Source: Okamejei kenojei (Eukaryota). Taken from it: a stretch of 34,388 bases of DNA. Under the pieces are notes generated by a model that was not told where the DNA came from, did no database searches, and saw only the letters and a program-made list of their open reading frames with translations. Every line of letters begins with the position of its first letter. Positions within the stretch are counted from its first letter, which is position 1. The stretch lies in contig JAVHYY010000485.1 in the NCBI GenBank assembly GCA_035221665.1, positions 62,001 through 96,388 of the forward strand. The letters are read 5' to 3'. Shown here one piece after another: positions 3,001 to 34,388 of this stretch. A program made the position numbers and the translations under genes.

Positions 3001-3084
3001 GGCCGCATTTAGAATATTACGTGCAGTTCAGGTCACTCCCATTACAGGAATAATGTGGAGGATTTAGAAAAGGTGCAAAGGAGA
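1..3084. mobile_element. Mosaic of old CR1 LINE ORF2 fragments (minus strand to about 1000, mostly plus after about 1215)
   Basis: ORF 466-729(-) reads GIPQGSVLGPLL...NDLD (RT); repeated ERxQRRFTxMLPG fragments; (ACAATAG)n tail at about 223-249. Confidence 0.8.
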
Positions 3085-3099
3085 TTTATTAGAATGCTG

Positions 3100-5152: not shown

Positions 5153-5461
5153 TTTATTAGAATGCTGCCTGGATTACAGTGTCTCAGTTACAGGGGAGAT
5201 GGGAGAGCGTGCAGAGGTGCTTTGCCAGACCGCTGCATGGATTAGTGGTTTCAGATACAGGGGGAGGATGAACAGACCTGGAGTAAAAGGAACGAACTGC
5301 ACATGCTGGTTTATTCCAACGATAGATATAACGTGATGGAGTAACTCAACGGGTTAGGCAGCATCGCTGGAGAAAATAGAATGGGTGACTTTTCGGGTAG
5401 GGCATTACATGCAGTATATGGAGCATTTGGTGAGGGTGCAGAGGAGATTTACCAACATGAT

Positions 5462-5910
5462 GGTACACAAAAAGCTGGAGAAACTCAGCGGGTGCAGCAG
5501 CATCTAAGGAGCGAAGGAGATAGGCGACGTTTCGGGTCGAGACCCTTCTTCAGACTGGTCAGGGATCAGGGAAACAAGAGATATAGACGGTGATGTGGAG
5601 AGATAAGGAACAATGAGTGAAAGATATGCAAAAAAGTATCGGTGATAAAGGGAACGAGCCATTGTAAGCTGTTTGTGGTGTGAAAATGAGAAGCTGGTGC
5701 GACTTGGGTGGGGGAGGGAGATAGAGATAGAGGGAATGCCAGGGCCCGAGGGCTGAGGGAGAAGTGGGAAGGGGAGGAAACAGCAAGGGTTAACAGAATT
5801 GAGAAAATTCAATATTCAAGCCCAAAGGATGCAGACTCCCCAAGCGGAATATGAGGTGCTGTTCCTCCAGCTTGCGGTGTTGCTCACTCTGGCCGTGGAG
5901 GAGGCCCAGG
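5462..5910 (-). mobile_element. Short 5'-truncated Penelope-like element of the same family
   Basis: Nearly identical to 3105-3510 and to the reverse complement of about 4665-5112. 11-bp TSD accaacatgat at 5451-5461 and 5911-5921. Confidence 0.88.
5526..5553 (-). ncRNA. Minimal hammerhead ribozyme motif, second intact copy
   Basis: Exact reverse complement of 5023-5050, lying on the sense strand of PLE 5462-5910. Confidence 0.6.
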
Positions 5911-6582
5911 ACCAACATGATACCTGGATTAGAGAGAATTGGCTACAGGGAGAGGTGGGAGAATGTGCATAGAAGGTTTACCAGAATTCAACACGTATGC
6001 GAGAGGTAGTCTACAGGGAGAGGTTGCGCAAACTTGGAATGTTTGTTTTCGGAAGGAGATGGGAGGCTTGGTAGAAGTATATACAATTATGACACGTAGA
6101 GATAGGGTTTACCTTACCCTCCCCACTCCTCGAGGGTGGAAAGGTGAAAGACTAGATGGAATATCATTAAAGTGAGCGGGGCAAAGTTTAAAGATGTTTT
6201 GTTTGCCCAGAGTGCAGTGGGGGCTTTGAACGCAATGCCAGGAGCGGTAGTGGGGGCAGATACGTTAGTGGTGTTTAAGAGGGTTTTAGATAGGCACATG
6301 GAAGTGCAGGGAATGGGGGACTATTGATCACGTGTGGACAACAGTTTAAATTTGTGATCGGCATGGTCATTTTGGGGTTGAAGACGTGTTCCTGTGCTGT
6401 ACTGTTCCGTGTTATATTTCCAAATTTATTCTGGGTGATACATGTGTCGCTTTGAACCATTGTTGTTGAATATTCTTGCGCCCTCAATCAAATTTATTGA
6501 TGCAATATATCTTTATTTTTAATATTCTAGTATGAATCAGGGTATCTACAGGACAAAGAAAGCTGGAAGGAGTGAGAACGAT

Positions 6583-6726
6583 NNNNNNNNNNNNNNNNNN
6601 NNNNNNNNNNNNNNNNNNNNNNNNNNNNNNNNNNNNNNNNNNNNNNNNNNNNNNNNNNNNNNNNNNNNNNNNNNNNNNNNNNNNNNNNNNNNNNNNNNNN
6701 NNNNNNNNNNNNNNNNNNNNNNNNNN
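6583..6726. other. Assembly gap
   Basis: Run of N. Confidence 1.
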
Positions 6727-7230
6727 AAAAATAATTTCCAAAAGCAGAATTAGGCCACCCAGCCCATCTAGACTATGGGGGGCTGTTCTATCTATCCTTA
6801 TCAACCCCATTATCCCGTCTTCTCTCCATATCCCCTGGCACACATTCTAAACGTGAATCTATTAGAAGAAGGGTCTCGTCCCGAAACGTCACCCATTCCA
6901 GCTATCCAGAGATGCTGCCTGCCCCAGTGAGTTACTCCAGCAATTTGTGTCTATCTTAAGAATGTATCAAACTCTGCCTTGTTTCATTTAACTTTGCATC
7001 CGCTGCCATCTGTGGCAATGATTTCCATGGATTCACCGCTCTCTGGCTAAACAAAATCATCCCCATCCTTTTTACGACACAGCCTTTTATACTGAGGCTG
7101 TGCCATCTTTCCCTAGATTCTCCCACTAATGGAAACATTATCCCCACTTCCACTCTATTCAAAAGCATTAGAAGCTGTACTATTCGGTTCTACTATAACA
7201 AATGCGATCTAACTGTGTTTTTATCCCACT

Positions 7231-7235
<5 letters not shown>

Positions 7236-7326
<91 letters not shown>

Positions 7327-7653
7327 GCCCTTTCTCTCTCCCTTTATCTATCGGCATTCCTCCATCTCCTTCTCCCTCCATCTTTCTTTCTCTCCCTCGA
7401 TCTTACCCTCTCCCTATTTATTTCCCCAATCCTCCTATTTTTCTCCTTCTTTCTTTCTCTCTCCTCCTATCTATCTCCCCATCTTCCTCTTTGTCTCTCC
7501 GCCTTTCACTCTTCCTCCTTCTCGCTTCATCTTTCATTCTCCCTCTGTCCGTTTCCCACTTACCCTCTTCCTCTTTCATACTCCCTCTTTCCCTCTCCAT
7601 CCCCCAATCCCCCATCCCCCCTCCTCTCTCTCCCGTTTTCCACTCCCTCTTTC
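7236..7653 (+). repeat. (CT)n microsatellite continuing as a long polypyrimidine tract up to the EX1 acceptor
   Basis: Pure (CT)n at about 7236-7321, then C/T-rich sequence to 7653. Confidence 0.95.
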
Positions 7654-7655
7654 AG

Positions 7656-8006
7656 ATCCGAAATTGAAGCTGAGATCTCCCCAAGTTACAATTCTCCAGC
7701 CGTCTGACCGTGAACTTAAAAACAACGGCAAAGCCACTGTGGTTTGTCTCATCACTGATTTTTACCCGGACAACATACAAATTCAATGGATTGTCGATGA
7801 CGTTGGACAACCCAAAGATAGTCCTAACATCCATACAGATCCTAGCTCCCAAAGCGAAGACGGAGGGAAGACCTTCAGTATCAGTAGTCGCTTTAGATTG
7901 GACGCCCGAGATTACGCAAAGGCCAAGAAGGTCGTCTGTCAAGTAGATCACTACAGGAATGGATCTACGCCACAAACTGAACAGGAAACCCACATCATCA
8001 AACACG
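7656..8006 (+). CDS. TRBC: T-cell receptor beta constant region exon 1 (Ig C1-set domain)
   Basis: Acceptor ...ctctttcag|AT CCG and donor CAC G|gtgaaa; 351 nt, phase 1 at both ends. Translates (D)PKLKLRSPQVTILQPSDRELKNNGKATVVCLITDFYPDNIQIQW...IHTDPSS...FSISSRFRL...VVCQVDHYRNGS...IIKH. Contains the C1-set Cys, Trp and Cys plus Cbeta-type motifs (KATxVCL, FYPD, TDP, SSRxR). Confidence 0.95.
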
Positions 8007-8313: not shown

Positions 8314-8406
8314 AAGCTGAATTTCAAACAATGGAAGCTGACTTATCTGATTCTCATTTGTAAAACTATCGTCTGTGAAATAATTGTTTCTGCTTTAGCT
8401 TGCAAA
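8314..8406 (+). pseudogene. Degenerate duplicate of the TRBC transmembrane exon (pseudo-exon or alternative exon) in intron 1
   Basis: Aligns with 14631-14731, including the acceptor (tttatgttcttttaacag vs tttatattcctttaacag). An 8-nt deletion after ACA ATG shifts the frame. The shifted frame reads KLTYLILICKTIVCEIIVSALACK. The gtaagt donor is absent. Confidence 0.88.
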
Positions 8407-8645
8407 AGTGCCACAACAATCCCTCTGTCTCCAGTGGAATAACAACCATGGTTTTAGTATCTGGAAGGGATGCCAAAACCCATAAGGGCATATGATAGGA
8501 GCAGAACGAGGCCATTATGCCCATCAAGTCTACTCCGCGATTTAATCACGGCTAATCAAAATCTTCCTCCTAAAATCATTCTCCTAACTTCCCCCTATAC
8601 CTCTTGACACCCGTACCAATCGGAAATCTATGTCTGCCTTCAAAA

Positions 8646-8680: not shown

Positions 8681-9474
8681 TCATTGAAAGTCGTCACAGC
8701 CGTTGCATAATTCCACACATTCACCACTCTGTGAAAAAAATACTGTCCTCCTCCCTTCCTTCTTAAATGAACGTCCATTAATTCAAAGAGGCTGTAACCT
8801 TTGGTCTTAGACTCTCCCACTAGTGGAAACATCCTCTCCGCAGCCACTCGTTGCAAGCCATTCGCTATTCTGTATGTTTAAATGACCCCCCTCCCCCCTC
8901 TAAACTCCAGCGCCATCAAACGCCCAGCCTATGTGTGATTCCTGGGATCATCCTTGTAAATCTCCTCTTCATCCTCTCCAGAGCCAGCACATCCTTCGTT
9001 GAATATGGTGCCATAAACTGGGCACAATCCACCAAATGCAGCCTGACCTATGTATTTTCACCGCTCAGTATATAGATTTTGACATAATATAACTTTATTT
9101 ATCCCAGGAGGCTTGTAAATGATTTCAAGAAATCGTATCCAAGGTCCCTAGTGTCAGAATATCTACCCCACTCCTTGGGATGCCTGTAGCACACTGCCAG
9201 GACAGGTGGTGGAGACAGATATGACTAGCGTTTATGTGGCTGTTAGGTAGACACATGGAAGTGCAGGGAATCGAGGAATATGGATCACGTACAGGCAGAT
9301 AAGGTTAACAAGGAAATGCAAAAACCGGTAAACACATGAAAGTACACAAACGTGGTTTACGAGAATGATCCTGGGGATGATTGTTAACGTTCGATGAGCG
9401 TTTAATGGCGCCAGAGCCTGTTCTCGCTGTTTAGAAAGATGAAGGGAGACCTAGATGAGGCACGGGTAGATTAG

Positions 9475-12290
9475 ATAACCATATAACCATATAACAATTA
9501 CAGCACGGAAACAGGCCCTCTCGGCCCTTCCAGTCCGTGCTGTAGTCCCCTAGTCCCATCTACCTGCGCTAAGACCATACCCCTCCATTCCCTTCACGTC
9601 CATATACCTATCCACTTTACTCTTAAATGTTAAAATCGATCCTGCCTCCACCACTTCTGCTGGAAGCTGATTCCACACAGCCACCAGAGTAAAGAAGTTC
9701 CCCCTCACGTTACCCCGAAACCTCTGTCCCTTAATTCTCATGTCATGCCATCTTGTTTGAATCTTCCCTACCCTCAATGGGAAAAACGTATCCACGTCAA
9801 CTCTGTCTATCCCTTTCATCATTTTAAAGACCTCAATCAAGTCCCCCCTTAACCTTCTGCGCTCCACAGAATAAAGACCTAACTTGTTCAACCTTTCTCT
9901 GTAACATAGTTGCTGGAACCCTGGCAACATTCTAATAAATCTCCTCTGTACTCTCTCTATTTTGTTGACATCATTCCTATAACTAGGCGACCAAAATTGT
10001 ACACCATACTCCAGAATTGGTCTTACCAGTGCCTTGTACAATTTTAACATTACTTCCCTACTCCTATATTCAATGCTCTGATTTATAAAGGCCAGCACAC
10101 CAAAGGCTTTCTTTACCACCCTATCTACATGCGATTCCACCTTCAGGGAACTATACACAGTTATTCCTAGATCCCTCTGTTCCACAGCATTCCTCAATTC
10201 CCTACCATTTACCATGTACGTCCTATTTTGATTTGTCCTGCCAAGATGTAGCACTTCACACTTATCAGCATTAAACTCCATCTGCCATCTTTCAGCCCAC
10301 TTTTCCAAATGGCCCAAATCTCTCTGTAGACATTGAAAATCTACTTCATTATCCACAACACCACCTATCTTAGTATCATCTGCATACTTACTTATCCAAT
10401 TTTCCACCCCATCATCCAGATCATTGATGTACATGACAAACAACAGTGGACCCAACACAGATCCCTGAGGCACCCCCACTGGTCACCGGCTTCCAACCTG
10501 ACAAACAGCCATCCACCATTACTCTCTGACATCTCCCATTCAGCCACTGTTGAATCCATCTTGCTACTCTGCCATTAACACCCAAAGATTGAAGCTTCTT
10601 AACCAACCTTCCATGGGGAACCTTGTCAAAGGCCTTACTGAAATCCATATAGACAACATCCACTGCTTTACCCTCATCAATTTCCCTAGTTACCGCTTCA
10701 AAAAATTCAAGAAGGTTTGTCAAATATGACCTTCCAGGCACAAATCCATGTTGACTGTTCCTGATCAGACCCTGTTGATCCAGATGCTTATATATATTAT
10801 CTCTAAGTATCCTTTCCATTAATTTGCCCACCACTGATGTCAAACTAATAGGTCTATAATTGCTAGGTTTATTCTTTGAACCCTTTTTAAACAATGGAAC
10901 AACATGCGCAGTACGCCAATCCTCCGGCACTATTCCCGTTTCTAATGACATCTGAAATATTTCTGTCATAGCTCCTGCTATTTCTACACTAACTTCCCTC
11001 AATGTCCTAGGGAATATCCTGTCAGGACCTGGAGACTTATCCACGTTTATATTTTTCAAAAGTGTCAGTACTTCCTCCTCTTTGAATCTCATAGTTTCCA
11101 TAGCTACTCTACTCTTTCCCCTCAACTCACCGAGTTCAATATCCTTCTCCTTGGTGAACACCGAAGAAAATAAATTGTTCAATATCTCCCCCATCTCTTT
11201 TGGCTCTGCAGATAGCTGTCCATTCTGGTTCTCTAATGGTCCAATTTGATCCCTCGTTATCCTTTTGCTATTAATATAGCTGTAGAAACCCTTTGGGTTT
11301 ACTTTCACCTTTCTTGCCAAAGCAACCTCATATCTTCTTTTAGCCTTCCTAATTTATTTCTTAAGATTCTTTTTACATTCTTTATACTCCTCTAGCACCT
11401 CATTTACTCCATGCCTCCTATAATTATTGTAGATATCTCTCTTTTTTCGAAACAAGTGTCCAATTTCCCTTGAAAACCATGGCTCTTTCCAATTTTTACT
11501 ATTTCCTTTCAACCTAACAGGGACATAAACATTCTGTACTCTTACAATTTCCCCTTTAAATGTCCTCCATTTCTCTTCTACATCCTTCCCATGAAACAAA
11601 GTGTCCCAATTCACTCCTTTAAAATCCTTACGCATTCCCCCAAAGTTAGCCTTTCTCCAATCAAAAATCTCTACCCTAGGTCCAGTTCTGACTCTCTCCA
11701 TAATTATATTGAAACTAATGGTATTTGTGATCACTGGTCCCGAAGTGCTCTCCAACGCATACCTCCGTCACCTGACCTGCCTCATTTCCTAACAGGAGGT
11801 CCAGCACTGCCCCTTCTCTGGTCGATACCTCTATGTACTGCTGCAAAAAACTATCCTGCACACATTTTACAAATTCCAAACCATCCAGCCCATTTACAGA
11901 ATGTGTTTCCCAGTCTAATTTTGGAAAATTGAAATCTCCCATAATCACTACCTTGTGCTTACTACTAATATCTGCTATCTCCTTACATATTTGCTCTTCC
12001 AATTCTCGCTCCCCATTTGGCGGTCTATAATACACCCCTAAAAGTGTTGCTACACCGTTACCACTTCTCAGTGCCACCCAAATAGCTTCCCTAGACGAGC
12101 CCTCTAATCTATCCTGCCAAAGCACTGCTGTAATATCTTCTCTGACAAGCAATGCAACACCTCCCCCTGTGGTCCCTCCAATTCTATCACATCTGAAGCA
12201 ACGAAATCCTGGAATATTTAGTTTCCAATCACAGCCCTCCTGCAACCATGTTTCACTGATTGTCACAACATCATATTTCCAGGTGTCAAT
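9475..12290 (-). mobile_element. Young CR1 LINE, 5'-truncated in the APE endonuclease, ORF2 frameshifted
   Basis: ORFs 11715-12266 (ETWL, GDFN), 11354-11755, 10421-11320 (KSPGPD, NYRPISL, DFSKAFD) and 9550-10479 ([14 protein letters not shown]); (CCATATAA)n tail at 9475-9495; closely similar to 26160-29002. Confidence 0.95.
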
Positions 12291-12519
12291 AGATGTGGAT
12301 ATAATGGTTCCATTCGTGGGAGAGTCTTGGACCAGATGCCATAGCCTCAGAAAAAAAGGATAAACCTTTGGAAAGGAGATGAAGGGGAATTTCTTTAATC
12401 AGAGGGTGGTGAATCTCTGGAATTAATTACCACCGAAGGCTATGGGGGTCATCAATTTATATTTTAAGGCCATCGACCATAATCACCCGTACTTTATTTT
12501 GTTTTTATTTAGATTAGTT

Positions 12520-12952: not shown

Positions 12953-12973
12953 AGACTTGTGGCTTGAGTAAAG
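12953..12973 (+). CDS. TRBC: TRBC exon 2 (connecting peptide with the interchain Cys)
   Basis: ttcttcttacag|AG ACT TGT GGC TTG AGT AAA G|gtgagt; 21 nt, phase 1/1; encodes (E)TCGLSK, comparable to mammalian Cbeta EX2 DCGFTS. Confidence 0.9.
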
Positions 12974-14630
12974 GTGAGTGGCTCTACTTAAATAAGTATA
13001 CCGTCATTATTTTAAGACTGTTTACCCTTTCTGTGAGTTAAAACTTAATAGCCTCACACAGCAATATATAGAGTGCATAAATACACTTCAGCCAAACCTG
13101 CCCGCGCCAACCCACATGCCACATCTACACTATTACCGTCTGTCCGTTGTTGGCCCACATCCCTCTAATGCTTTCCTATCCAGCTAAATGTCCAAACGTT
13201 AATTAAACGTTGTGATAGTGCTTGCCATAACTACCCCCCCCCCCGCCCCCCCCACCCCCCCCCCCCATCCCACGGCAGCATGTTACATACAGTCACTGTG
13301 TAGTGAACATTGTCCCTCAGGTTCCTATCAAAACTTTCTCCCGCTCATCCCCCTCACCGTACACATATGGCCTCTGGTTCTCGATGCTCCATACTCTGGG
13401 CAAAAGACTGTGCATCTTCTTGATCTCTTCATCGCGTGATTTTGGAAAGCTCTATAAGATAACCCTCATCCTCCTACATTACAAGGATTCAAGTCCTAGC
13501 CTGACTCAACTTTTCCCTGTAGCTCAGGCCCTTGAGTCATGGCAACATTTATGTAAATATTCTTGGCATCCTTTCCCGCTTAACAACATCTTTCCATAAA
13601 TAGTGTGACCAAAACTGAACAAAATACCAAAAATGTGGCCTTACCGATGTCTAGTACAGCTGCTATATTACCTATGGCCTCTGGGTATTGATTCCCCTAT
13701 CGTGGGGGTAAAAGACTGTACATTTACCCGATCTATTCCCCTCATGATTTTATGCAATATCAGATCACATCCTCCTCCTGCGCTCCTAAGAATACATGTT
13801 TAGCCTACCCAAACTATCCATATAGCTCAGACACCCGAGTCCTGGCAACATTCTCTTAAAGCTTATCTGCACAATTTCCCGCACATCAACATATTTCCTA
13901 TAACATGGTGAATATAGTCCAAATGTGGCCTCACCAAAGTCTTCCTGTAACATGCGTTCCAAATGTCTAAACTGAAACTCTGAATAATGAAGGTAATGTG
14001 CCTCAGAAGACGGCTATGGGAATGCATCTGCCGACTCCAGCCAGCAGGAGATACAGAGCCTCGGCCGCAGGGGGGCAAATCTGACCAGTCAATCCGCCGC
14101 GGAAGTCCCGATGAGGTCGAGATTAGCACCCACACTTGGCCTCAGCGTCGCATTTTCGAGGCGGATTTCCGGGAGGGATTTCAAGTATGCTCTCGTAGCA
14201 TGTTTGAGCTAAAGGATGAGCCAGACCCCGAGTTGCTGGAAAAACAGTGGCGGTAATGTATATGTGTGTTCCCACTTTCAGGGAATTATGTACTTGGACC
14301 ACACGATCCCTCTGTACATCGATGCCGTTAAGGGTATTAGCAATAACTATAGAATTCCCCCTTGCATACGACCTCCCAAAGTGCAACATCTCGCACATGC
14401 TCAGATTACAGTCCAACCGCCATTTTTCTACCCATTTATGTAGCTGATCTCTTTTCCACTGAATACTTTGACATCTTTCTTCACAGTCCGCAACCCCAGC
14501 GTTTGTTCATTCATAAATATCCGTTATGTTAAAGTGCCTATACTACTTCAGCAAGTAAGAAGTTATTTTTTAATAAACTTTATTCTTCACTCTAGATGTT
14601 ATTTACCACATCTTTATATTCCTTTAACAG

Positions 14631-14737
14631 AAGCTAAAGTTCAGACAATGCAAACTGCGAAACTGACTTACCTGATCCTGATTTGCAAGAGTATTATTTA
14701 TGGAATAATTGTTTCCGTATTAGCTTGCAAAGCCAAG
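14631..14737 (+). CDS. TRBC: TRBC exon 3 (connecting peptide plus transmembrane)
   Basis: cctttaacag|AA GCT...GCC AAG|gtaagt; 107 nt, phase 1/0; encodes (E)AKVQTMQTAKLTYLILICKSIIYGIIVSVLACKAK, with the antigen-receptor TM pattern Y-x-I-L-x-x-K-x-x-x-Y including the intramembrane Lys. Confidence 0.93.
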
Positions 14738-20892: not shown

Positions 20893-20919
20893 ACATCTTA
20901 CAGCAAGAGGTTTGATTGA
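20893..20919 (+). CDS. TRBC: TRBC exon 4 (cytoplasmic tail plus stop)
   Basis: ttcttatttcag|ACA TCT TAC AGC AAG AGG TTT GAT TGA = TSYSKRFD*. Phase 0 matches the EX3 donor. A separate cytoplasmic exon is the TRBC pattern rather than the TRGC pattern. Confidence 0.85.
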   Translation, partial: TSYSKRFD

Positions 20920-21719: not shown

Positions 21720-21865
21720 CGCCACAGTGGCGCAGCTGATAGAGCCACTGCATCACAGCAGCAGAGACCCAGGATAGATCCTGAACCTTGGTTACTGTCG
21801 TTCTGGAGTTTGCATATTCTCCCGGTGACAACGTGGGATTCCTCCGAGTGCTCTGATTTTATCCA
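21720..21865 (+). mobile_element. tRNA-derived V-SINE-like element (head plus core)
   Basis: A-box-like tggcgcagctga, degenerate B box, then a ggagtttgca..ttctccc.gtgac..cgtggg.tt core. Confidence 0.65.
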
Positions 21866-21949
21866 ATGTCACGATTTTCTGATAATTGATTTTATATGAA
21901 TGTTTCTTGATTTTATTGATGTGCTAGACCGTGCAGACTCGTTATGTCT

Positions 21950-22297
21950 GCTCAGCATCATCAAGGCCCCACACCACCCTGCCCACACACCCTGGTACCT
22001 TCGGGTAGACGGTACATGAGCCTGAGAACTGCACCGACCCGGTTCAGGAATAGCTACTTCCCCACAGCCATCAGGGTATTAAACCTGGCTCGGACAAAAC
22101 TCTGAACAATAATATCCCTCCATCTGTTATTTACACTTTATTAATTTATTAATTAATGTCCGTATTCACGTATATAATTGTAGTCAATGCCTACTATGTT
22201 CTGTTCTGCTAAGCAAATAAATAATTCCATCTTCCTGTCAGGGACACATGACAATAAACTCTTTTGACTTTGACTCTTTTGACTTTGACTTTGACTC
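21950..22297 (+). mobile_element. Rex1/Babar-like LINE 3' end with (TTTGAC)n tail
   Basis: Remnant encoding SIIKAPHHP..PSGRRY..RFRNSYFPTAIRVLN, then AATAAA and tttgac repeats at 22263-22296. Confidence 0.6.
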
Positions 22298-22809
22298 TCC
22301 CAACGCACCCGTTCCATACCTGTAGCCCCCACGGGAGGCGTGGTTCTCCAACTCAATACTTTGCCCAACATAAGATTCCAGCACCTCTTCCTCCCCAGCA
22401 CTGGACTTGAAAGACAAAATCCCAATTGCACTTGCCCAATTGCAATACCAATTGACCCTCCCCCCCCGTCCTGCTGGGAGCTATGAAGAAAGCTGTGTTG
22501 CAAATGTCGGCTGCACTTGTTGTGATATGCCATTGAGTTGAAAAGTTCAGAGTGTTCCTGATTGCAACTTTAAAATGGAAGTGCGTTGGAAGCTGTGAGA
22601 TATCATTTTAACAGTAAAATCGTTGTTAATCTTTACGTTTTGAAACTTTATTCGAAATAATTCGATAAATAAAGCATGAAATGTTAACATAATGTGATTC
22701 CGGCCTCGACGGGAAAATGTCAACCGGAATATATAAAATTAAATTATCGTTTCCACGTTGTTTTTTTTGTGACGATGTAAACACAAGCACATATACACAC
22801 TCGTGCAAG

Positions 22810-23920
22810 ATCAGAGTATATGATGTTTATGATAGTATATGATGTCGTTTCATGCTCTCGCGACTTTTTTACATTATGAATCCATTAATTATATTAATTA
22901 TTCCATAATGTCATAACATCAAGATTACATGATTCCTATTTAGTCATTTTGATCTATGATTCCAGAATGTCATGATTTTATAAGTTGTTAAGTTACTGGA
23001 GAGAATTCTGAGGGATAGGATATACAAGCATTTGGATGGACAAGGGCTGATTAGGGGCAGTCAGCATGGTTTTGTACGTGGGAGGTTAGGTAGGCTGGCT
23101 CTCTATTCCATGGAGCGCAGGAGGATGAGGGAAGATCTTATAGAGGCATATAAAGTCATGATAGGAATGGATCGGGTAGATGTACAGAGTATTTTACACA
23201 GTGTAGAGGAGTCGAAGACCAGAGGACATAGGTTCAAGATCAAGCGGAAAGGATTTAACAGGATATCGAATGGTAAATTCTTCGCACAGAGGGTGGTGGG
23301 TGTATAGAACAAGCCACCAGAGGAGGTTGTTGAGGCTGGGAATATTCCATCGTTTACGAAACAGTTGGACAGGTACATGGATAGGACAGGTATGGAGGGT
23401 TATGGACCAAGGGCAGGCAAGTGGAACTAGTGTAGCTGGGTCATTGTTGACCAGTGTGTGCGAGTTTGGCAGAAGGGCCTGTTTCCGCACTGTATCACTC
23501 TATGAGGATGAGTCTACAATATCTTCAATTTCATAATGTATCCATTCGTGGCACCATGATTTTAATGATTTTGTGGCTTTATCATTTCATGTTTCCATGA
23601 TATATCTGATATCAGAATTAATCAACTTCGCGATATCTTTGCTTTCAAGATTGTATAACTTTATTGTTCCGTGATATCCCTTATTTCAAGATTGCATAAT
23701 TTTATGACACCATGTTTCCAATTTCAACATTATATGACCATGATTTCGATGATTTTGTGACGTATTGACTGTGATTCCATGATGTTCATGATTTCAGAAT
23801 TGAATAATTTAGTAGTTCTAAGATACATCTAATTTCAGTTGTGTATAACTTTATAATTCCATGATATCTCTGATTTCAGGCCTGCATAACCACGATCCCG
23901 TGATTTCAAGATTATACGAA
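22810..23920. repeat. Degenerate AT-rich tandem repeat (catgat/gatttcaagatt units) split by a CR1 fragment at about 22995-23510
   Basis: Recurrent ccatgat and gatttcaagattg.ataa.ttat motifs on both sides of a plus-strand CR1 3' piece. Confidence 0.55.
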
Positions 23921-24272
23921 CCTAACTTTCATTGGATTTGAAATCATGTTTGAATATTAATTCGCTTTGCTGCGTTAGTTAGGTGCGTTTGCTCATGAAC
24001 TGTTACCTGTTTCACTCGGAAATCAATTTTCTTGTGATCCGGATAGTTAGTTTTCCGACGATGGACATCAAACTAAAATCTGTGCAGAGGCCTTTGAATT
24101 CACCAGAGATCTTGCAATCTGCATTGTTTATGTACATGGTCATATCTTAATCAATAAAGAGAGCGTTGCTGCAAATAAATCTCTCGTTTCTCATTTACTT
24201 ATGTCATAGTTGCATAAAACGGAAATAGTAGAAATTCAAGGGGCCTGAGCTACAGAAAGTTCATAAATTATG

Positions 24273-25090
24273 TAAGTGTGAAGTGCTACATCTTGGCAGG
24301 ACAAATCAAAATAGGACGTACATAGTAAATGGTAGGGAATTGAGGAATGCTGTGGAACAGAGGGATCTAGGAATAACTGTGCATAGTTCCTTGAAGGTGG
24401 AATCGCATGTAGATAGGGTGGTAAAGAAAGCCTTTGGTGTGCTGGCCTTTATAAATCAGAGCATTGAATATAGGAGTAGGGAAGTAATGTTAAAATTGTA
24501 CAAGGCATTGGTAAGACCAATTCTGGAGTATGGTGTACAATTTTGGTCGCCTAGTTATAGGAAGGATGTCAACAAAATAGAGAGAGTACAGAGGAGATTT
24601 ACTAGAATGTTGCCAGGGTTCCAGCAACTATGTTACAGAGAAAGGTTGAACAAGTTAGGTCTTTATTCATTGGAGCGCAGAAGGTTAAGGGGGGACTTGA
24701 TTGAGGTCTTTAAAATGATGAAAGGGATAGACAGAGTTGACGCGGGTAAGCTTTTCCCATTGAGGGTAGGGAAGATTCAAACAAGAGGGCATGATATGAG
24801 AATTAAGGGACAGAAGTTTAGGGGTAACGTGAGGGGGAACTTCTTTACTCAGAGGGTGGTGGCTGTGTGGAATGAGCTTCCAGCAGAGGTGGTGGAGGCA
24901 GGATCGATTTTAACATTTAAAAGTAAAGTGGATAGGTATATGGACGTGAAGGGAATGGAGGGGTATGGTCTGAGTGCAGGTAGATGGGACTAGGGGAAAA
25001 CAAATGGTCGGCACGGACTGGAAGGGCCGAGAGGGCCTGTTTCCGTGCTGTAATTGTTATATGGTAATATGGTTATATGGTTATATATGG
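24273..25090 (+). mobile_element. Young CR1 LINE, 5'-truncated 3' end
   Basis: Open ORF2 C-terminus (24283-24993), 3' UTR and (TTATATGG)n tail. Confidence 0.95.
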
Positions 25091-28000
25091 GACGTACACA
25101 TCTGCGCCAGGTGTGTCGAGATGGGGCTCCTAAAGGATCGTGTTAGGAACCTGGAGCAGCAGCTCGACGACCTCCGTCTGGGCAGGGAGAGTGAGGAGGT
25201 AATAGAGAGGAGCTACACGGAGGCAGTCACTCCCAGACCACAGGAGGCAGACAAGTGGGTCACGGTTAGGAAGGGCAAGGGGCAGAGGCAGGGGCTAGAG
25301 AGTACCCCTGTGACCGTTCAACTGGAAAATAGGTACTCAGGTTTGAGTACGATTGGAGGAGACAGCCTAGCTGGGGGCAACAACAGCAGCCGGGCCTCCG
25401 GCACAGAGACCGGCCCTGATGCTCAGAAGGGTAGCAAAAAGAGGAGGGCAATTGTAATAGGGGACTCTATAGTTAGGGGGTCGGATAGGCGATTCTGTGG
25501 ACGCAGTCGGGAGACCCGGATGGTAGTTTGCCTCCCTGGTGCCAGGGTCTCGCATGTGTCAGAACGTGTCGAAAAGATTCTGATACGGGAGGGAGAGGAG
25601 CCTGATGTTGTGGTACACATAGGTACCAATGACATAGGCAGAAAAAGTGACGAGGTCCTGAAGGGAGAATTTAGGGAGTTGGGGGGAAATTTAAAGAGAA
25701 GGACCAAAAGGGTAACGATTTCAGGATTACTGCCTGTGCCGCGTGACAGTGAGAGTAGGAATGAAATGAGGTGGAGGCTAAATGCGTGGCTGAGGGACTG
25801 GTACAGTGGGCAGCGATTCAAGTTTCTTGATCACTGGGACCTCTTTTGGGGAAGGCATGATCTGTACGCAGAGGACGGGTTGCACTTGAACCCGAAGGGG
25901 ACCAATATCCTGGCAGGGAGATTTGCAAAGGCTACTGGGGAGATTTTAAACTAGAAAGGCTGGGGGGAGGGACTCGGGTAGAGGGGGCTAGGGGACAGGG
26001 TGTTGGGCAAGAGGCAGAGAAGGGAAGCACTCGGACCCAAAATGTAGGCGAGAAAGATGAAAAAGATAATAGACAGAGAATAAAGGATGGTGGGTTTATA
26101 AAATGTGCATATTTTTAATGCTAGGAGCATTGTAAGTAAGGTGGATTAACTTAGAGCCTGGATTGACACCTGGAAATATGATGTTGTGGCAATCAGTGAA
26201 ACATGGTTGCAGGAGGGCTGTGATTGGAAACTAAATATTCCAGGATATCGTTGCTTCCGGGGTGATAGAATTGGAGGGACCAGAGGTGGAGGTGTTGCAT
26301 TGCTTGTCAGAGAGGATATTACAGCAGTGCTTTGGCAGGATAGATTAGAGGGCTCGTCTAGGGAGGCTATTTGGGTGGAACTGAAAAGTGGGAACGGTGT
26401 AGCAACACTTTTAGGGGTGTACTATAGACCGCCAAATGGGGAGCGAGAATTGGAAGAGCAAATATGTAAGGAGATAGCAGATATTAGTAGTAAGCACAAG
26501 GTAGTGATTGTGGGAGATTTCAATTTCCCAAAAATAGACTGGGAAACACATTCTGTAAATTGGGCTGGATGGTTTGGAGTTTGTAAAATGTGTGCAGGAT
26601 AGTTTTTTGCAGCAGTACATTGAGGTACCGACCAGAGAAGGGGCAGTGCTGGACCTCCTGTTAGGAAATGAGGCAGGACAGGTGACGGAGGTATGCGTTG
26701 GTGAGCACTTCGGCACCAGTGATCACAATACCATTAGTTTCAATATAATTATGGAGCGAGTCAGAACAGGGACCTAGAGTGGAGATTTTTTGATTGGAGA
26801 AAGGCTAACTTTGAGGGAATGCGTGAGGATTTTAAAGGAGTGAATTGGGACACTTTGTTTCATGGGAAGGATGTAGAAGAGAAATGGAGGACATTTAAAG
26901 GGGAAATTGTAAGAGTACAGAATCTTTATGTCCCTGTTAGGTTGAAAGGAAATAGTAAAAAATTGGAAAGAGCCATGGTTTTCAAGGGAAATTAGACACT
27001 TGTTTCGAAAAAAGAAAGATATCTACAATAATTATAGGAGGCATGGAGTAAATGAGGTGCTAGAGGAGTATAAAGAATGTAAAAAAGAATCTTAAGAAAG
27101 AAATTAGGAAGGCTAAAAGAAGATATGAGGTTGCTTTGGCAAGAAATGTGAAAGTAAATCCAAAGGGTTTCTACAGCTATATTAATAGCAAAAGGATAAC
27201 GAGGGATAAAATTGGCCCATTAGAGAACCAGAATGGACAGCTATCTGCAGAGCCAAAAGAGATGGGGGAGATATTGAACAATTTCTTTTCTTCGGTATTC
27301 ACCAAGGAGAAGGATCTGGAACTCTGTGAGGTAAGGGAAAAAAGTAGAGTAGCTATGGAAACTATGAGATTCAAAGAGGAGGAAGTACTGACACTTTGAA
27401 AAATATAAAGGTGGATAAGTCTCCAGGTCCTGACAGGATATTCCCTAGGACATTGAGGGAAGTTAGTGTAGAAATAGCAGGAGCTATGACAGAAATATTT
27501 CAAATGTCATTAGAAACGGGAATAGTGCCGGAGGATTGGCGTACTGCGCATGTTGTTTCCATTGTTTAAAAAGGGTTCAAAGAATAAACCTAGCAATTAT
27601 AGACCTATTAGTTTGACATCAGTGGTGGGCAAAATTAATGGAAAGGATACTTGGAGATAATATATATAAGCATCTGGATAAACAGGGTCTGATCAGGAAC
27701 AGTCAACATGGATTTGTGCCTGGAAGGTCATGTTTGACAAACCTTCTTGAATTTTTTTGAAGCGGTAACTAGGGAATTGATGAGGGTAAAGCAGTGGATG
27801 TTGTCTATATGGATTTCAGTAAGGCTTTTGACAAGGTTCCCCATGGAAGGTTGGTTCAGAAGGTTCAATCTTTGGTGTTAATGGCGGAGTAGCAAGATGG
27901 ATTCAACAGTGGCTGAATGGGAGATGTCAGAGAGTAATGGTGGATGGCTGTTTGTCAGGTTGGAAGCCGGTGACCAGTGGGGTGCCTCAGGGATCTGTGT

Positions 28001-29002
28001 TGGGGTCCACTGTTTGTTTGTCATGTACATCAATGATCTGGATGATGGGGTGGAAAATTCGATAAGTAAGTATGCAGATGATACTGAGATAGGTGGTATT
28101 GTGGATAATGAAGTAGATTCTCAAAGTCTACAGAGAGATTTGGGCCATTTGGAAAAGTGGGCTGAAAGATGGCAGATGGAGTTTAATTGCTGATAAGTGT
28201 GAAGTGCTACATCTTGGCAGGACAAATCAAAATAGGACGTACATGGTAAATGGTAGGGAATTGAGGAATGCTGTGGAACAGAGGGATCTAGGATAACTGT
28301 GCATAGTTCCCTGAAGGTGGAATCGCATGTAGATAGGGTGGTAAAGAAAGCCTTTGGTGGGGCTGGCCTTTATAAATCAGAGCATTGAATATAGGAGTAA
28401 GGAAGTAATGTTAAAATTGTACAGGGCATTGGTAAGACCAATTCTGGAGTATGGTGTACAATTTTGGTCGCCTAGTTATAGAAGGATGTCAACAAAAATA
28501 GAGAGAGTACAGAGGAGATTTACTAAGAATGTTGCCAGGGTTCCAGCAACTATGTTACAGAGAAAGGTTGAACAAGTTAGGTCTTTATTCTTTGGAGCGC
28601 AGAAGTTTAAGGGGTGACTTGATTGAGGTATTTAAAATGATGAAAGGGATAGACAGAGTTGACGTGGATAAGCTTTTCCCATTGAGGGCAGGGAAGATTC
28701 AAACAAGAGGGCATGACATGAGAATTAAGGGACAGAAGTTTAGGGGTAAACGTGAGGGGGACCTTCTTTACTCAGAGGGTGGTGGCTGTGTGGAATGAGC
28801 TTCCAGCAGAGGTGGTGGAGGCAGGATCGATTTTAACATTTAAAATTAAAGTGGATAGGTATATGGACGTGAAGGGAATGGAGGGGTATGGTCTGAATGC
28901 AGGTAGATGGGACTAGGGGAAAACAAATGGTCGGCACGGACTGGAAGGGCCGAGAGGGCCTGTCTCCGTGCTGTAATTGTTATATGGTTATATGGTTATA
29001 TG
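25091..29002 (+). mobile_element. Young near-full-length CR1 LINE (ORF1 esterase open to 25954; ORF2 frameshifted, ends 28916)
   Basis: ORF1 has HICARC, a coiled coil, GDSIVRG, VHIGTND and DGLHL; ORF2 has APE and RT motifs with many 1-nt indels; tail at 28980-29002. Confidence 0.95.
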
Positions 29003-32000
29003 AGCAGTATTAGTCAAGTCTTGAATCATGGCTGATCTACATTTCCCTCTCAGCTACATTGTCACGCCTTTACCCCATAACACCTGAATCCTGTACTAAT
29101 CAAAATGTTTTCAAACGCATACCTTTATCCATTGACCTGGCCTCCACAGCTCTCTGTGGCAATAAATCCCACGGATTCACCACCCTCTGGCTAAAGAAAT
29201 TCCTCCACATCTACATTCTAAATGAATATTATTTTATTCTTACTCTGTAGCTTGTGGTCCTAGAATCTCCCACGAATCATAAAAACATATCCACATCCAC
29301 TCTATCCAAAACTTATACTATTTTGTACGTTTCTATGCGGTCCCCCACACATCCTTCTAAACTGCAATGAGTATCATCAAATGCCAATGAATTCATCCAA
29401 TAATCCTTGGATCATTCTTGTAAACCTCTGCTGGACACGCTCCAATCTGGGTGAGGGAGAGGTTGAGCAGGCTAGGCATGTATACCTTGGAACACTGTAG
29501 AAGTTGTACATATGGATTCCAGCAAGGCATTTGACAAGGTTCCGCATGGTAGGCTGCCCAGGGTGGTTAGATGGCATGGGATCCAGTGAGAGAGAGTTGA
29601 ATGGATAGAAAATTGAGTTCATAGAAGCAAGCAGAAGGTGATGTTGAAATGTATTTTTTCGGACTGCAGGCCTGTGACTATTGGTGTGCCTCAGTGTTCG
29701 TTGCTGGGCCAATTGCTGTTTGTTATCATATGAATGATTTGGATGAGAACATACAAAGCATGTTTAAGGTCTTAAAGTAAGGAATAGGAGCAGAGTTTGG
29801 CAATTCAGCCCATCTAGTATACTCAATCATTGCTGATATATCTCTCCCTCCTCAACCCATTCTCCTGCCTTCTCTCCATAACCTCTGACATCTGTACTAA
29901 TCAAGAATCTACCTATGCGTGCCTTAAAAGTATCCACCTAGATGGCCTCTACAGCCTTCTGTGGCAGATAATTCCACAGATTCACAAACCTCTAATTAAA
30001 TAAATGTCTCAGCATCTCCTTCCTAAAATAACGTACTTTAATTCTGAGGCTATAGCATCTAGTTCTACACCCTCCCGCCAATGAAAACATCCTTTCCACT
30101 TCCACTATATCCAAACTGTTCATTATTCTTTATGTTTCAATGAGGTCCCCCCTCATTGTTCCAAATTCCAGCGAGTAACCATATAACCATATAACATATA
30201 ACAATTACAGCACGGAAACAGGCCCTCTCGGCCCTTCCAGTCCGTGCCGACCATTTGTTTTCCCCTAGTCCCATCTACCTACACTCAGACCATACCCCTC
30301 CATTCCCTTCACGTCCATATATCTATCCACTTTACTCTTAAATGTTAAAATCGATCCTGCCTCCACCACTTCTGCTGGAAGCTCATTCCACACAGCCACC
30401 ACCCAACAGGTGCAGTGCCGACACTGGTACAAGTACAGTGCCGACAAAAGCTCATCATAGGTTAACGTACGTATTCCTGGGATCATTCTTGTAATCCTCC
30501 TCTGGGCCCCCTCCTGAAACAGCACATCCTTCCTCAGATCTGGTGCCCAGATTTACTCACAATATTCCAAATGCGGCCTTACCAGCGCTTTATAGAGTCT
30601 TGACAATTCATTCATGTTGTTGCATTCTAGCCCTCTTGAAATACTTGCTAGTATTTAGTCTGCTTGCTTTACTCCCGATTATACTTGCCGATTAACATTT
30701 TGGAAATCCTACTCCTGCACTGCCAAATCCAATTTCTCCTCCGATTTCTGATTCCCACCCCCCATTTAGAAAATAGTCTAAACGCCTTTATTCCTATTAT
30801 TACCAAAATGCGATTACTCCACATTTTGCAGCACTATGTTCCATCCGCCACTTGTCTGCCACACTCCCAACCGTTCAATAATACCCTTCTGCAGAGTTCC
30901 TGTTTTCTCTACACTACCTGCCCCTCCACCTATTTGCGTATCAACCGCGAATTTTAACTCAAATTCTTCAATCCACTCGTCCAAATTATTAGTATACAAT
31001 GCGAAGAGTAGCGCCCCCCGCACCGACCATTGCGGAACTCCACCAGTCACTGGCAGTCAACCAGAAAAATACCCCATTATTGCCAGCTCTTTGTCTTCTG
31101 CCATCCAGCCAAGCCGATATCCATGTATACGCCCTTTGATACCGTGGGCTCTCATCTTCCAAAGCAGCATAATGTGCGGCACCGTATCAAAGGCTTAATA
31201 TAAGTAAATGCCATCTCCTTTGTCTGTCCTGCCATTTACTTCCTCAAAGAATTCCAGCCGATCTGTCAAGGAAGACCTCCCCTTTAAAAAGCCATGCTGA
31301 CCTCGGCCTATTCTATCGTGAACATATCAGTATTCTGAAACATCATTTTTAATGATCTTTAAAATCTTACCCAACCACTGAAGTCAGATTAACCGACCTC
31401 TAGTTCCCACTGATATGCCTTGCTAGATTTGTTACCATCTGACGCTCACCAATCCTATGGCTTCCCGTTACCTTTTGCACTGTTATACACTCTCTCTTTT
31501 ACGTTTATACTGTCCTTGACTTCCCTTGTTAGCCACGGGACGCGGTTGTCACCCCCACGAATCTTTCCTCCGCTTTGGAATGAAATGATCCTGCATTTTC
31601 CGGATTATTCCCTAAAATTCCTGGTCTACCGTTATCCCTGCTATGGTCCCATTCCAGTCAACATTGGCCAGCTTCTCCCTCTTGTCTCTGTTATTCCTGT
31701 TGCCAAGCTGCAATGCCGACACATCTAATTTCACCTTCTCCCTCTCAAATTGCATATTAAAACTTATCATGTTGCGATCGCTACCTCCTAATGGTTCGTT
31801 TAACTTGAGTTCCCTGATCAAATCCGGTTCATTACATAATCCTAAATGCAAAGTTACACTTTCCTTGGTAGGCTCCATCACAAACTGCTTTAAGAATCCA
31901 TTTCGTAGGCTATACATATTCCCTTTCTTGTAAACTAATACCAGCCTAATTTTCCCAATGTATCTGCATATTGAAATCTCCCATGACCACCGTAGCATTT

Positions 32001-32990
32001 CTCTATTTGCATGCCAATGTTATCTCCTGATGTACCCTATATCCTGGATACTGTTTTGCGAGCTGTAAATAACTCCCCTTAGGTCCTTTCAGCCATAATT
32101 TTTCAGCTCAAGCCACAAAAATTCTACATCATCTGATCCTATTTCACCCTCATCGCCACACCCTATGCCCACATTCCTGTCATTCCGATATGAAGTATAA
32201 CCCTGAATATTAAGCTCCCAGCTCTGGTACTCTTGTAGCCACGTCTTCTGAAATTGTTTGAAGATATAACTAGGAAAATGGTCAAGGGATAGGCAGTGGA
32301 TGTAGTGTACCTGGACATTCTGAACACATTTGCTAAGGTCCCACATAGGAGATTAGTGGGCAAAATTGGGGCACATGGTATTGGCGGTAGAGTGCTGACA
32401 TGGATAGATACATGGTTGGCAGACAGGAAAAAAAGAGTAGGAATGAACGGGTCCCTTTCCGAATGGCAGGCAGTGACTAACGGGGTACCGCAAGATTCGG
32501 TGCTGGGATCACAGCTATTTTCAATATATATCAATGATTTGGGATTCAAGGTAACATTAGCAAATTTGCAGATGAAACTAAACTGGGTGGCAGTGTGAAC
32601 TGTGAGGATGCTATGAGAATGCAGGGTGACTTGGACAGGTTGCGGGAGTGGGCAGATGCATGGCATCTGAAGTTGAATGCAGATAAATGTGAGGTTAACC
32701 AGTTTAGTGGCTAAAACAGGAAGGCAGATTACTATCTAAATGGCGTCAAGTTCGAAAAAGGGGAAGTAGAACGGGATCTGGGAGCCCTTGTTCATCAATG
32801 TATGAAAGCAAGCAGTGAAGAAAGCGAATGGCATAAGGCTCTTAAACATAGCGGAGTCAGGGGATATGGGGAGAATGCAGGAACGGGGTACTGATTGGGG
32901 ATGATCAGCTATGATCACATTAAATGGCGGTGCTGGCTCGAAGGGCAGAATGGCCTACTCCTGCACCTATTGTCTAGTGTCTATTGTCTA
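29003..32990. mobile_element. Mosaic of old CR1 fragments (mostly minus to about 32245, plus 32247-32990 with a (CTATTGT)n tail)
   Basis: GGVPQ/FAVDT, GSD and NGVPQDSVLG remnants in the ORF track; tail at about 32967-32990. Confidence 0.8.
30176..30403 (-). mobile_element. Young CR1 3'-end insertion nested in an older CR1
   Basis: (CCATATAA)n tail plus 3' UTR and ORF2 end (WNELPAEVVEAG...RWD). Confidence 0.9.
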
Positions 32991-33039
32991 TGTAATTCCC
33001 ACAACATCATGCCTAACAATCTCTAACTGTGCTAAAAGC

Positions 33040-33632
33040 TCATCCACTGAATATCTTATGGTACGCACATTCTAATACAACACTTTAATTCAGTAGTGAC
33101 CTGTGACACCACTTTCGGGGAACTATGCACCTGCACAGTTACATCCCACTGCTCCACAACACTCCCTGCCTACATGATACGCCACTTTCAGGGAACAATG
33201 TACCTGCATTCCTCGATCCCTCCGCTCAAAACAATCCCTGTCTTCCTGTGACACCAATTTAAGAATCAATATACCTGCACTCCTAGATCACTCAGCTCTG
33301 AAGCACTCACCATCTACCTTTGACGGTACTTTCAGTGAACTACTGTATGGACCTGCAGTTCTAGATGCCTCTGTTCTGCAACACTCCATGATTACGTGTG
33401 ACTCCGTATTCTAGGAACTATGACCTGCACCTCTAGATACCTCTGCTCGAGAGCACTCCATCTACACCTAATACACCACTTTCAGGGAATTATGCACCTG
33501 CACCCCAATATCCCTCTGCACTGCAATACCACCTGCCTACCTGTGACGCCCATTTCATGGAACTATTTACATTCACTCCAAGATCCCACTGCTCTTCAAC
33601 ACTCCCTGCCTATATGTGATACTACTTTCAGG
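33040..33632. repeat. Degenerate tandem repeat of about 73 bp, about 8 copies, derived from antisense CR1
   Basis: ccactttcagggaactatgcacctgcac..ctagatccctctgctc..caacactccc recurs at about 33109, 33182, 33255, 33327, 33404, 33476, 33550 and 33622. Confidence 0.8.
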
Positions 33633-33639
33633 AAAAGGA

Positions 33640-33970
33640 GGTAGGGTTGACGCGGAAAGTGGGAAAACATCACATGTTAGTTTCTGACTTGCATAGTTTT
33701 TGCTTCCGTTGCTTCCGTAAATACTAGTCAAACGGAAAAAAAACGGACAGAATCGAACGACGCAGGCGAGTCGAGAAAACAAGTAGCAGTGCCTGAGAGG
33801 AGTGCGGCAGAACTTGCGGATGTGGTTGAACAACATTGCTGTTCCACTACAACGTTCCTGTCAAAGTAGGTCACACCCTCCCGGCCCGGTTTGTGGTCGA
33901 ACAAGTTCCGACATTTGATCCTTAGGTTGCCTCGTAGGGGCAGGGTGTCGCTTGGTGCTAGGCACACTGT
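33640..33970. promoter_or_regulatory. Candidate TCR beta 3' enhancer (Ebeta-like) or neighbouring promoter
   Basis: Non-repetitive, CpG-containing island with CGGATGTGGTT (ETS-RUNX composite, 33817-33827), TGTGGTC (33892-33898), tandem GCTTCCG ETS cores (33702-33717), E-box CACATG (33671-33676) and a TGACG half-CRE (33648-33652). Confidence 0.45.
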
Positions 33971-33979
33971 TTTATTTGT

Positions 33980-34209
33980 CTTTCTCCTCACTCTCTCCCT
34001 CCCCTATCCCCCTCTCTCCTCTCTCGCTATCTCTCTCTCCCTACCGGTTTCTGGCCCCCACTCTCTCTCTCTCACGTCCCTATCTCTCCCCTCTCATCAT
34101 CTCTCTCACCCTCTCCTCTCTCATCTCTCTCTCTCTCTCTCTCTATCTATCTGTCTCTCTCTCTCTCCTCCCTCTCTCTCCTCCTCCTCTCTCTCACTCA
34201 CCGCTCTCC
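33980..34209 (+). repeat. CT-rich low-complexity tract
   Basis: Degenerate (CT)n running into the assembly gap. Confidence 0.9.
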
Positions 34210-34346
34210 NNNNNNNNNNNNNNNNNNNNNNNNNNNNNNNNNNNNNNNNNNNNNNNNNNNNNNNNNNNNNNNNNNNNNNNNNNNNNNNNNNNNNNNNNNN
34301 NNNNNNNNNNNNNNNNNNNNNNNNNNNNNNNNNNNNNNNNNNNNNA
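34210..34346. other. Assembly gap
   Basis: Run of N. Confidence 1.
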
Positions 34347-34388
34347 GTATCACCCCACCAAAACAAGCGGGGTGGTTTGGCATAATAC

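Follow-up and report, generated by a model that had tools for sequence, protein, structure and literature searches.

In mammals, the cis-elements through which antigen-receptor loci become open to RAG have been well defined. E-beta, which acts as the enhancer of TCR-beta, is defined by two composite ETS/RUNX sites (PMC13639285, PMC7696796), and the human E-beta site is given as CAGGATGTGGT (PMC2787013). Mutation of both RUNX sites is reported to abolish the activity of mouse E-beta (PMC5288706), and RUNX1 is described as the functional partner, with ETS1 stabilizing binding (PMC7696796). The sequence GGATGYGGY corresponds to the published motif and register of cooperative ETS1-RUNX1 binding (PMC10681739; compare PMC2787013). 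The GATA and kappaE2 sites are described as fully conserved between the human, mouse, and cow E-beta, the latter being located 8.7 kb 3' (PMC2685407), and E-alpha, the enhancer of TCR-alpha, is reported to have one composite (PMC7696796). Zebrafish runx1 mutants are reported to retain V(D)J recombination in T cells (PMC6070721), so a dependence on RUNX1 is not assured in fishes. Inverted V genes and EPHB5/6 are described as the 3' neighbors of TRB in amniotes and in a newt (PMC11754216, PMC12698447). For elasmobranchs, we found no statement in the literature naming the 3' neighbor of TRB, and our search, which was thin on subscription papers, turned up no report describing an enhancer of TCR-beta for sharks or skates.

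We looked into the whole stretch of DNA available to us (34,388 bp, termed the window) and analyzed its TCR-beta constant gene (TRBC). An Ig C1-set exon (positions 7656 to 8006, + strand), recognized by Pfam and protein matches, showed a 52% match to TCR beta from Mustelus asterias, 73% to a protein from Leucoraja erinacea, 50% to TCR beta from Rhincodon typus, and, in a protein comparison, 83% to one unnamed protein. Protein alignment and splice ends placed three further exons on the same strand: exon 2, encoding a connecting peptide with a Cys (12953 to 12973), exon 3, encoding the transmembrane part (14631 to 14737), and exon 4, whose coding part up to the stop codon spans 20893 to 20919. 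The four exons have AG/GT ends and, once joined, form an open frame of 167 aa, which is identical at 123 of 167 positions (74%) to the Leucoraja erinacea protein and at 93/158 to the Mustelus asterias TCR beta, with identity to both proteins extending through the transmembrane and cytoplasmic parts. Together, the four spliceable exons, the 167-aa frame, and the identity to the relatives' proteins indicate that the gene is an intact four-exon TRBC of a skate-like cartilaginous fish, which bears out the Cbeta assignment of the original prediction.

We found no V domain, J segment, or recombination signal sequence (RSS) in the window. Over the 7.6 kb preceding the C exon (1 to 7655), which contain one gap at 6583 to 6726, there is neither a J segment nor an RSS, and the J-C intron must therefore be long. 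Intron 1 carries, just past the C-domain exon (8315 to 8420, + strand), a degenerate copy of the transmembrane exon of TRBC together with the intron sequence that flanks it upstream; this copy has an 8-bp deletion and is without a matching donor, and either a partial duplication or a shorter ancestral layout of the gene may have left it behind. Intron 2 contains a 186-bp, GC- and CpG-rich, non-repeat island (13994 to 14179) with four CGGA words and no RUNX site. Downstream of the stop codon, two AT-rich, non-repeat islands (21865 to 22983 and 23941 to 24259) have raised CpG contents (observed/expected, 0.77 and 0.90, respectively) and several AATAAA/ATTAAA signals, with two GATA matches in the first, and they are probably the 3' end of TRBC.

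About 85% of the window, and about 82% of the flank 3' of TRBC, is recognizable repeat, low-complexity DNA, or gap, in line with the predicted dominance of repeats. From their domain content, on which the family labels rest, we take these repeats to be mostly pieces of CR1 LINEs, with some Penelope-like elements. Two CR1-type LINEs are near full length (24974 to 28980, + strand, with an esterase [GDSL-like] ORF1, and 9470 to 12400, - strand), and a tail shared by the CR1-type LINEs occurs in five copies in the window. A Penelope-like element with GIY-YIG and reverse transcriptase (RT)-like frames, in an inverted and tandem arrangement, lies upstream of the C exon (3354 to 5900).

Within the 3' flank, window self-comparison and composition delineated a non-repeat, CpG-rich island of 343 bp (33636 to 33978), a candidate regulatory element, with 49% GC and 20 CpG dinucleotides (observed/expected, 0.98 versus 0.48 for the window). 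Its left flank is a tandem array of about seven diverged 73-bp copies derived from a CR1 LINE RT segment (33099 to 33635), as established by self-comparison; three of these copies carry CACCTG E-boxes (33128, 33495, and 33530) and adjoin an island without such a box. To the right are a (TC)n-rich tract (33979 to 34209) and then an assembly gap (34210 to 34345). Past the island, the window extends for another 410 bp, gap included, and a better candidate or a neighboring gene may therefore sit just outside. Comparison of the island with the remaining window DNA, down to a word size of 6, yielded no similar stretch (best E value, 4.6), so the predicted uniqueness holds only within the window. No terminal repeats bound the island, the two long open frames that cross it gave no Pfam match, and neither an Rfam search of positions 28000 to 34388 nor an ARAGORN tRNA search of the window returned a match. 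A viral scan with a 16-mer from the island gave 31 loci, none of which aligned over more than 27 bases, and these were taken as chance. A metagenome scan with an island 24-mer gave 0 matches, as did a control 24-mer with four exact copies in the window, and was thus uninformative.

We then analyzed the motifs of the island. The original prediction had listed CGGATGTGGTT with its ETS-RUNX composite (33817 to 33827, + strand), a TGTGGTC, two tandem CGGAAGC cores, a CAGGAAC, an E-box, and a half-CRE, and a motif scan recovered all of them where they had been placed. The composite proper, CGGATGTGGT (33817 to 33826, + strand), contains an exact GGATGYGGY (33818 to 33826) in the cooperative ETS1-RUNX1 register. 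It lies 12,898 bp (12.9 kb) beyond the TRBC stop codon, which agrees with the predicted distance of about 13 kb, and 25,811 bp beyond the end of the C-domain exon. A second RUNX core, TGTGGT (33892 to 33897, + strand; TGTGGTC, 33892 to 33898), begins 71 bp after the first (33821). It is preceded by GTT instead of GGA and so has no ETS core in the composite register and does not form another composite. Both RUNX cores lie in a common context, TGTGGTYGAACAA, with 12 of 13 bases matching between 33892 to 33904 and 33821 to 33833, a degree of sharing reached in 17/500 shuffles; one module may have been duplicated long ago, or this context may be a RUNX word combined with an HMG-type word. The 71-bp spacing recalls the 73-bp period of the neighboring array, yet we rejected a continuation of the array since the island has no similarity to it.

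The island contains eight MGGAW cores, six of which have the CpG-containing CGGA form. Two tandem CGGAAGC cores on the - strand (33702 to 33708 and 33711 to 33717) are 9 bp apart and are overlapped by a MYB-type CAACGG (33706 to 33711). Two AACGGA words follow (33731 to 33746, + strand), the first of which forms an inverted repeat with 33698 to 33710. The region from 33648 to 33676 (+ strand) combines a half-CRE (TGACG, 33648 to 33652), a CGGAAA, a TGGGAA of the RBPJ/Ikaros type, and an E-box (CACATG, 33671 to 33676). Each of these is frequent by chance, and the E-box and half-CRE, while present as predicted, are common across the window (284 matches for CANNTG and 21 for TGACG). Likewise, the CAGGAAC (33854 to 33860, - strand) is in place but is a weak ETS-like core, as no G follows the GGAA. 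A possible splice donor, AAA|GTAGGT (33863 to 33871, + strand), matches 7 of 9 consensus positions. The interval from an ATG at 33820 to this donor, at 33866, measures 46 nt and would thereby equal an Ig leader exon in length; since the encoded peptide lacks hydrophobicity (GRAVY, 0.05), a V-gene leader was rejected. We found no WGATAR and no CAGGTG/CACCTG in 33636 to 33985, such matches being confined to the flanking repeats; the island also lacks an exact TCF/LEF CTTTG core, a full CRE, and CCAAT, NRF1, YY1, and TATA matches, and it has no GC box of note.

How far these motifs exceed chance depends on which of them are considered. The GGATGTGGT composite occurs once in the window and appeared in 29/100 window shuffles; alone, it is not beyond chance in 34 kb. 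Across the window, RUNX and ETS cores are not clearly enriched, the observed counts being reached in 9/100 and 7/100 shuffles, respectively. A cluster comprising the composite, a second TGYGGT within 150 bp, and at least two further MGGAWG, as defined after the sequence had been seen, was found in 27/500 whole-window shuffles and in 8/500 shuffles of the 3' flank and thus modestly exceeds chance. The island has the highest count of ETS plus RUNX motifs per 300 bp in the window (6, against 5 in the next region) and also the highest CpG count per 300 bp (20, the next being 19 in the Penelope-like element, at 3426). The window has 12 non-repeat islands of at least 150 bp, and the composite occurs in this island alone; 4 of the 12 belong to the 3' flank (1946 bp), where again no other island has a TGYGGT. 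A composite anywhere in these four islands was obtained in 163/2000 shuffles. Other candidates for an E-beta (21865 to 22983, 23941 to 24259, and 25952 to 26116) were rejected, having no composite and no TGYGGT, as was the only other GGAWGTGGY of the window (17449), which lies within repeat sequence.

We also shuffled the island against its own dinucleotide content, again with criteria chosen after seeing the sequence, so that the resulting values are optimistic. Under these conditions, GGATGYGGY arose in 26/5000 shuffles, the composite with two TGYGGT in 11/5000, and two TGYGGT alone in 411/5000, while eight MGGAW arose in 8/5000, six CGGAW in 4/5000 (1.0 expected), and the tandem CGGAAG in 70/5000. 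For a regulatory element, the evidence from the ETS surplus is fairly strong; for a lymphoid one, that from the RUNX pair is modest. As judged from these motifs, the island is probably a real, ETS-driven regulatory element, which we treat as a candidate.

The proposal that the TCR-beta locus has in this island a T-lineage enhancer, working like mammalian E-beta, has in our estimation about an even chance of being correct. By analogy with mammals, the composite at 33817 to 33826 would be loaded cooperatively by RUNX/CBF-beta and an ETS1-type factor, and RUNX would also occupy the second site, at 33892 to 33897. The additional ETS sites (CGGAA), and perhaps the MYB, RBPJ/Ikaros, and bHLH sites, would contribute further activation. 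Once opened, the element would reach D-beta/J-beta promoters located upstream of the window by a loop spanning some 26 kb or more, filled with transposons, and this contact would promote germline transcription and RAG access and, later, the upkeep of the rearranged gene. The sites and their position are observed; binding, looping, and tissue specificity would follow if the analogy holds.

The E-beta logic put forward in the original prediction was retained in part. The island does lie 3' of TRBC, the side on which E-beta is situated in mouse, human, and cow, its composite has the exact cooperative register and is the only one among the non-repeat islands, and there are two RUNX sites (33821 and 33892). 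However, the island contains one composite instead of two, and it has neither the GATA site (betaE1/Tbeta2) nor the kappaE2 E-box (betaE3). For the CRE of E-beta (betaE2/Tbeta2), the possible counterpart is the half site TGACG at 33648, one of 21 in the window. As two defining features of E-beta were looked for and found to be absent, we do not file the island as E-beta. That it is nonetheless the cartilaginous-fish orthologue of E-beta, with a RUNX-ETS switch inherited from the common ancestor of jawed vertebrates, is a tentative idea that we consider somewhat doubtful. An orthologue of this kind would have kept the composite core, would be without three things present in the mammalian enhancer (the GATA module, the kappaE2 module, and a second ETS half-site), and would survive as a small island within a flank consisting of more than 80% repeats.

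The same ETS sites could instead belong to a neighboring gene, an alternative already raised with the original prediction, which had mentioned a CpG promoter. The island would then be a TATA-less, ETS-driven (GABP-type) promoter with the noncoding first exon of an unseen + strand gene that runs into the gap and past it. The CGGA form of ETS cores, found in six of the eight cores of the island, is tied mostly to housekeeping promoters (CCGGAAG), while the CAGGA form is tied to enhancers (PMC2787013), and duplicated GGAA motifs are described as typical near TATA-less start sites (PMC3101357). In the first of these studies, the enrichment reported for CCGGAAGC is 23-fold at redundant promoters, compared with 1-fold at ETS1-specific enhancers; the ACGGAAGC of the island does not figure in its table (PMC2787013). 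Distal Ets1 sites of thymocytes that lie outside CpG islands are, however, reported to contain CGGAAG motifs as well (PMC4856961), and the presence of such motifs is therefore compatible with an enhancer. A promoter would agree with the top CpG count and the excess of CGGAW cores and tandem CGGAAG over shuffles, and the possible donor at 33866, which would end the first exon, is followed by a pyrimidine tract resembling those before TRBC exons 1 and 4. That donor has no G at position -1, though, and a second 7/9 match at 33676 indicates that such donor matches are cheap. Moreover, no downstream exon is visible within the window, the promoter-type CCAAT, NRF1, and YY1 matches and a notable GC box are missing, and the GC content is only 49%. 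A promoter also does not predict the exact GGATGYGGY with a second RUNX core; the RUNX sites would have to be incidental or a lymphoid tuning, or else the promoter could double as an enhancer. We regard a neighboring promoter as rather unlikely, yet as a rival to be kept. ATAC-seq of little skate fin, H3K4me3 HiChIP, and methylomes have been published (PMC10115646).

In such a repeat-laden flank, the island could also derive from a transposon, or from another kind of repeat, as a piece without a second copy in the window, or it could be neutral sequence, its motif cluster being a coincidence or the element's own promoter. The island adjoins CR1-derived sequence, the Penelope-like DNA at 3426 comes within one CpG of its count, and whole-window shuffles reproduced the cluster at the frequency given above. 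Against this origin stand the lack of any similar sequence in the remaining window, of bounding terminal repeats, and of Pfam, Rfam, or tRNA matches, as well as an ETS content exceeding the dinucleotide expectation (8/5000). Since copy number was judged within the window and transposon DNA can be nearly as CpG-rich here, we hold a repeat or chance origin to be unlikely but not negligible. The finding would be an ordinary one if the island turned out to be either a promoter or a repeat.

We thus propose the island as a good and cheaply testable candidate for a T-lineage enhancer, as distinct from a demonstrated one. Should it prove to be an orthologous E-beta, the cis-regulatory logic that controls V(D)J recombination of TCR-beta would date to the origin of RAG-based immunity. 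A candidate of 343 bp with two mutable RUNX cores allows the age of the RUNX-ETS switch to be tested against that of the TCR-beta locus, and it bears on which modules of E-beta (GATA, kappaE2, and the second composite) were later additions.

Compared with redundant housekeeping promoters driven by ETS factors (GABPA/ELF1/ETS1), the island is similar in its CpG retention, its tandem CGGAAG, and its lack of a TATA box and different in the flanks of its ETS cores (ACGGAAGC, versus CCGGAAGT in the promoters), in its GC content of 49%, in its RUNX pair, and in having neither a start site nor a downstream exon in view. With E-alpha and the genome-wide class of ETS/RUNX T-cell enhancers (PMC2787013), it shares the presence of one composite, which is of the GGATGTGG type. 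E-alpha belongs to another locus, and the island is without the exact TCF/LEF CTTTG core or full CRE. With respect to mammalian E-beta (mouse betaE1 to -6, human Tbeta2 to -4), the comparison relies on published site descriptions, unaligned, and on this basis the island differs by its one composite versus two, by CGGATG in place of CAGGATG, by its lack of a GATA site and of a kappaE2-type E-box, and by being CpG-rich with a tandem CGGAAG. It resembles E-beta in its location 3' of the constant gene, at 12.9 kb versus 8.7 kb in the cow, in its GGATGTGGT ETS-RUNX composite, in having a pair of RUNX cores no more than a few hundred bases apart, in its E-box, and possibly in its half-CRE.
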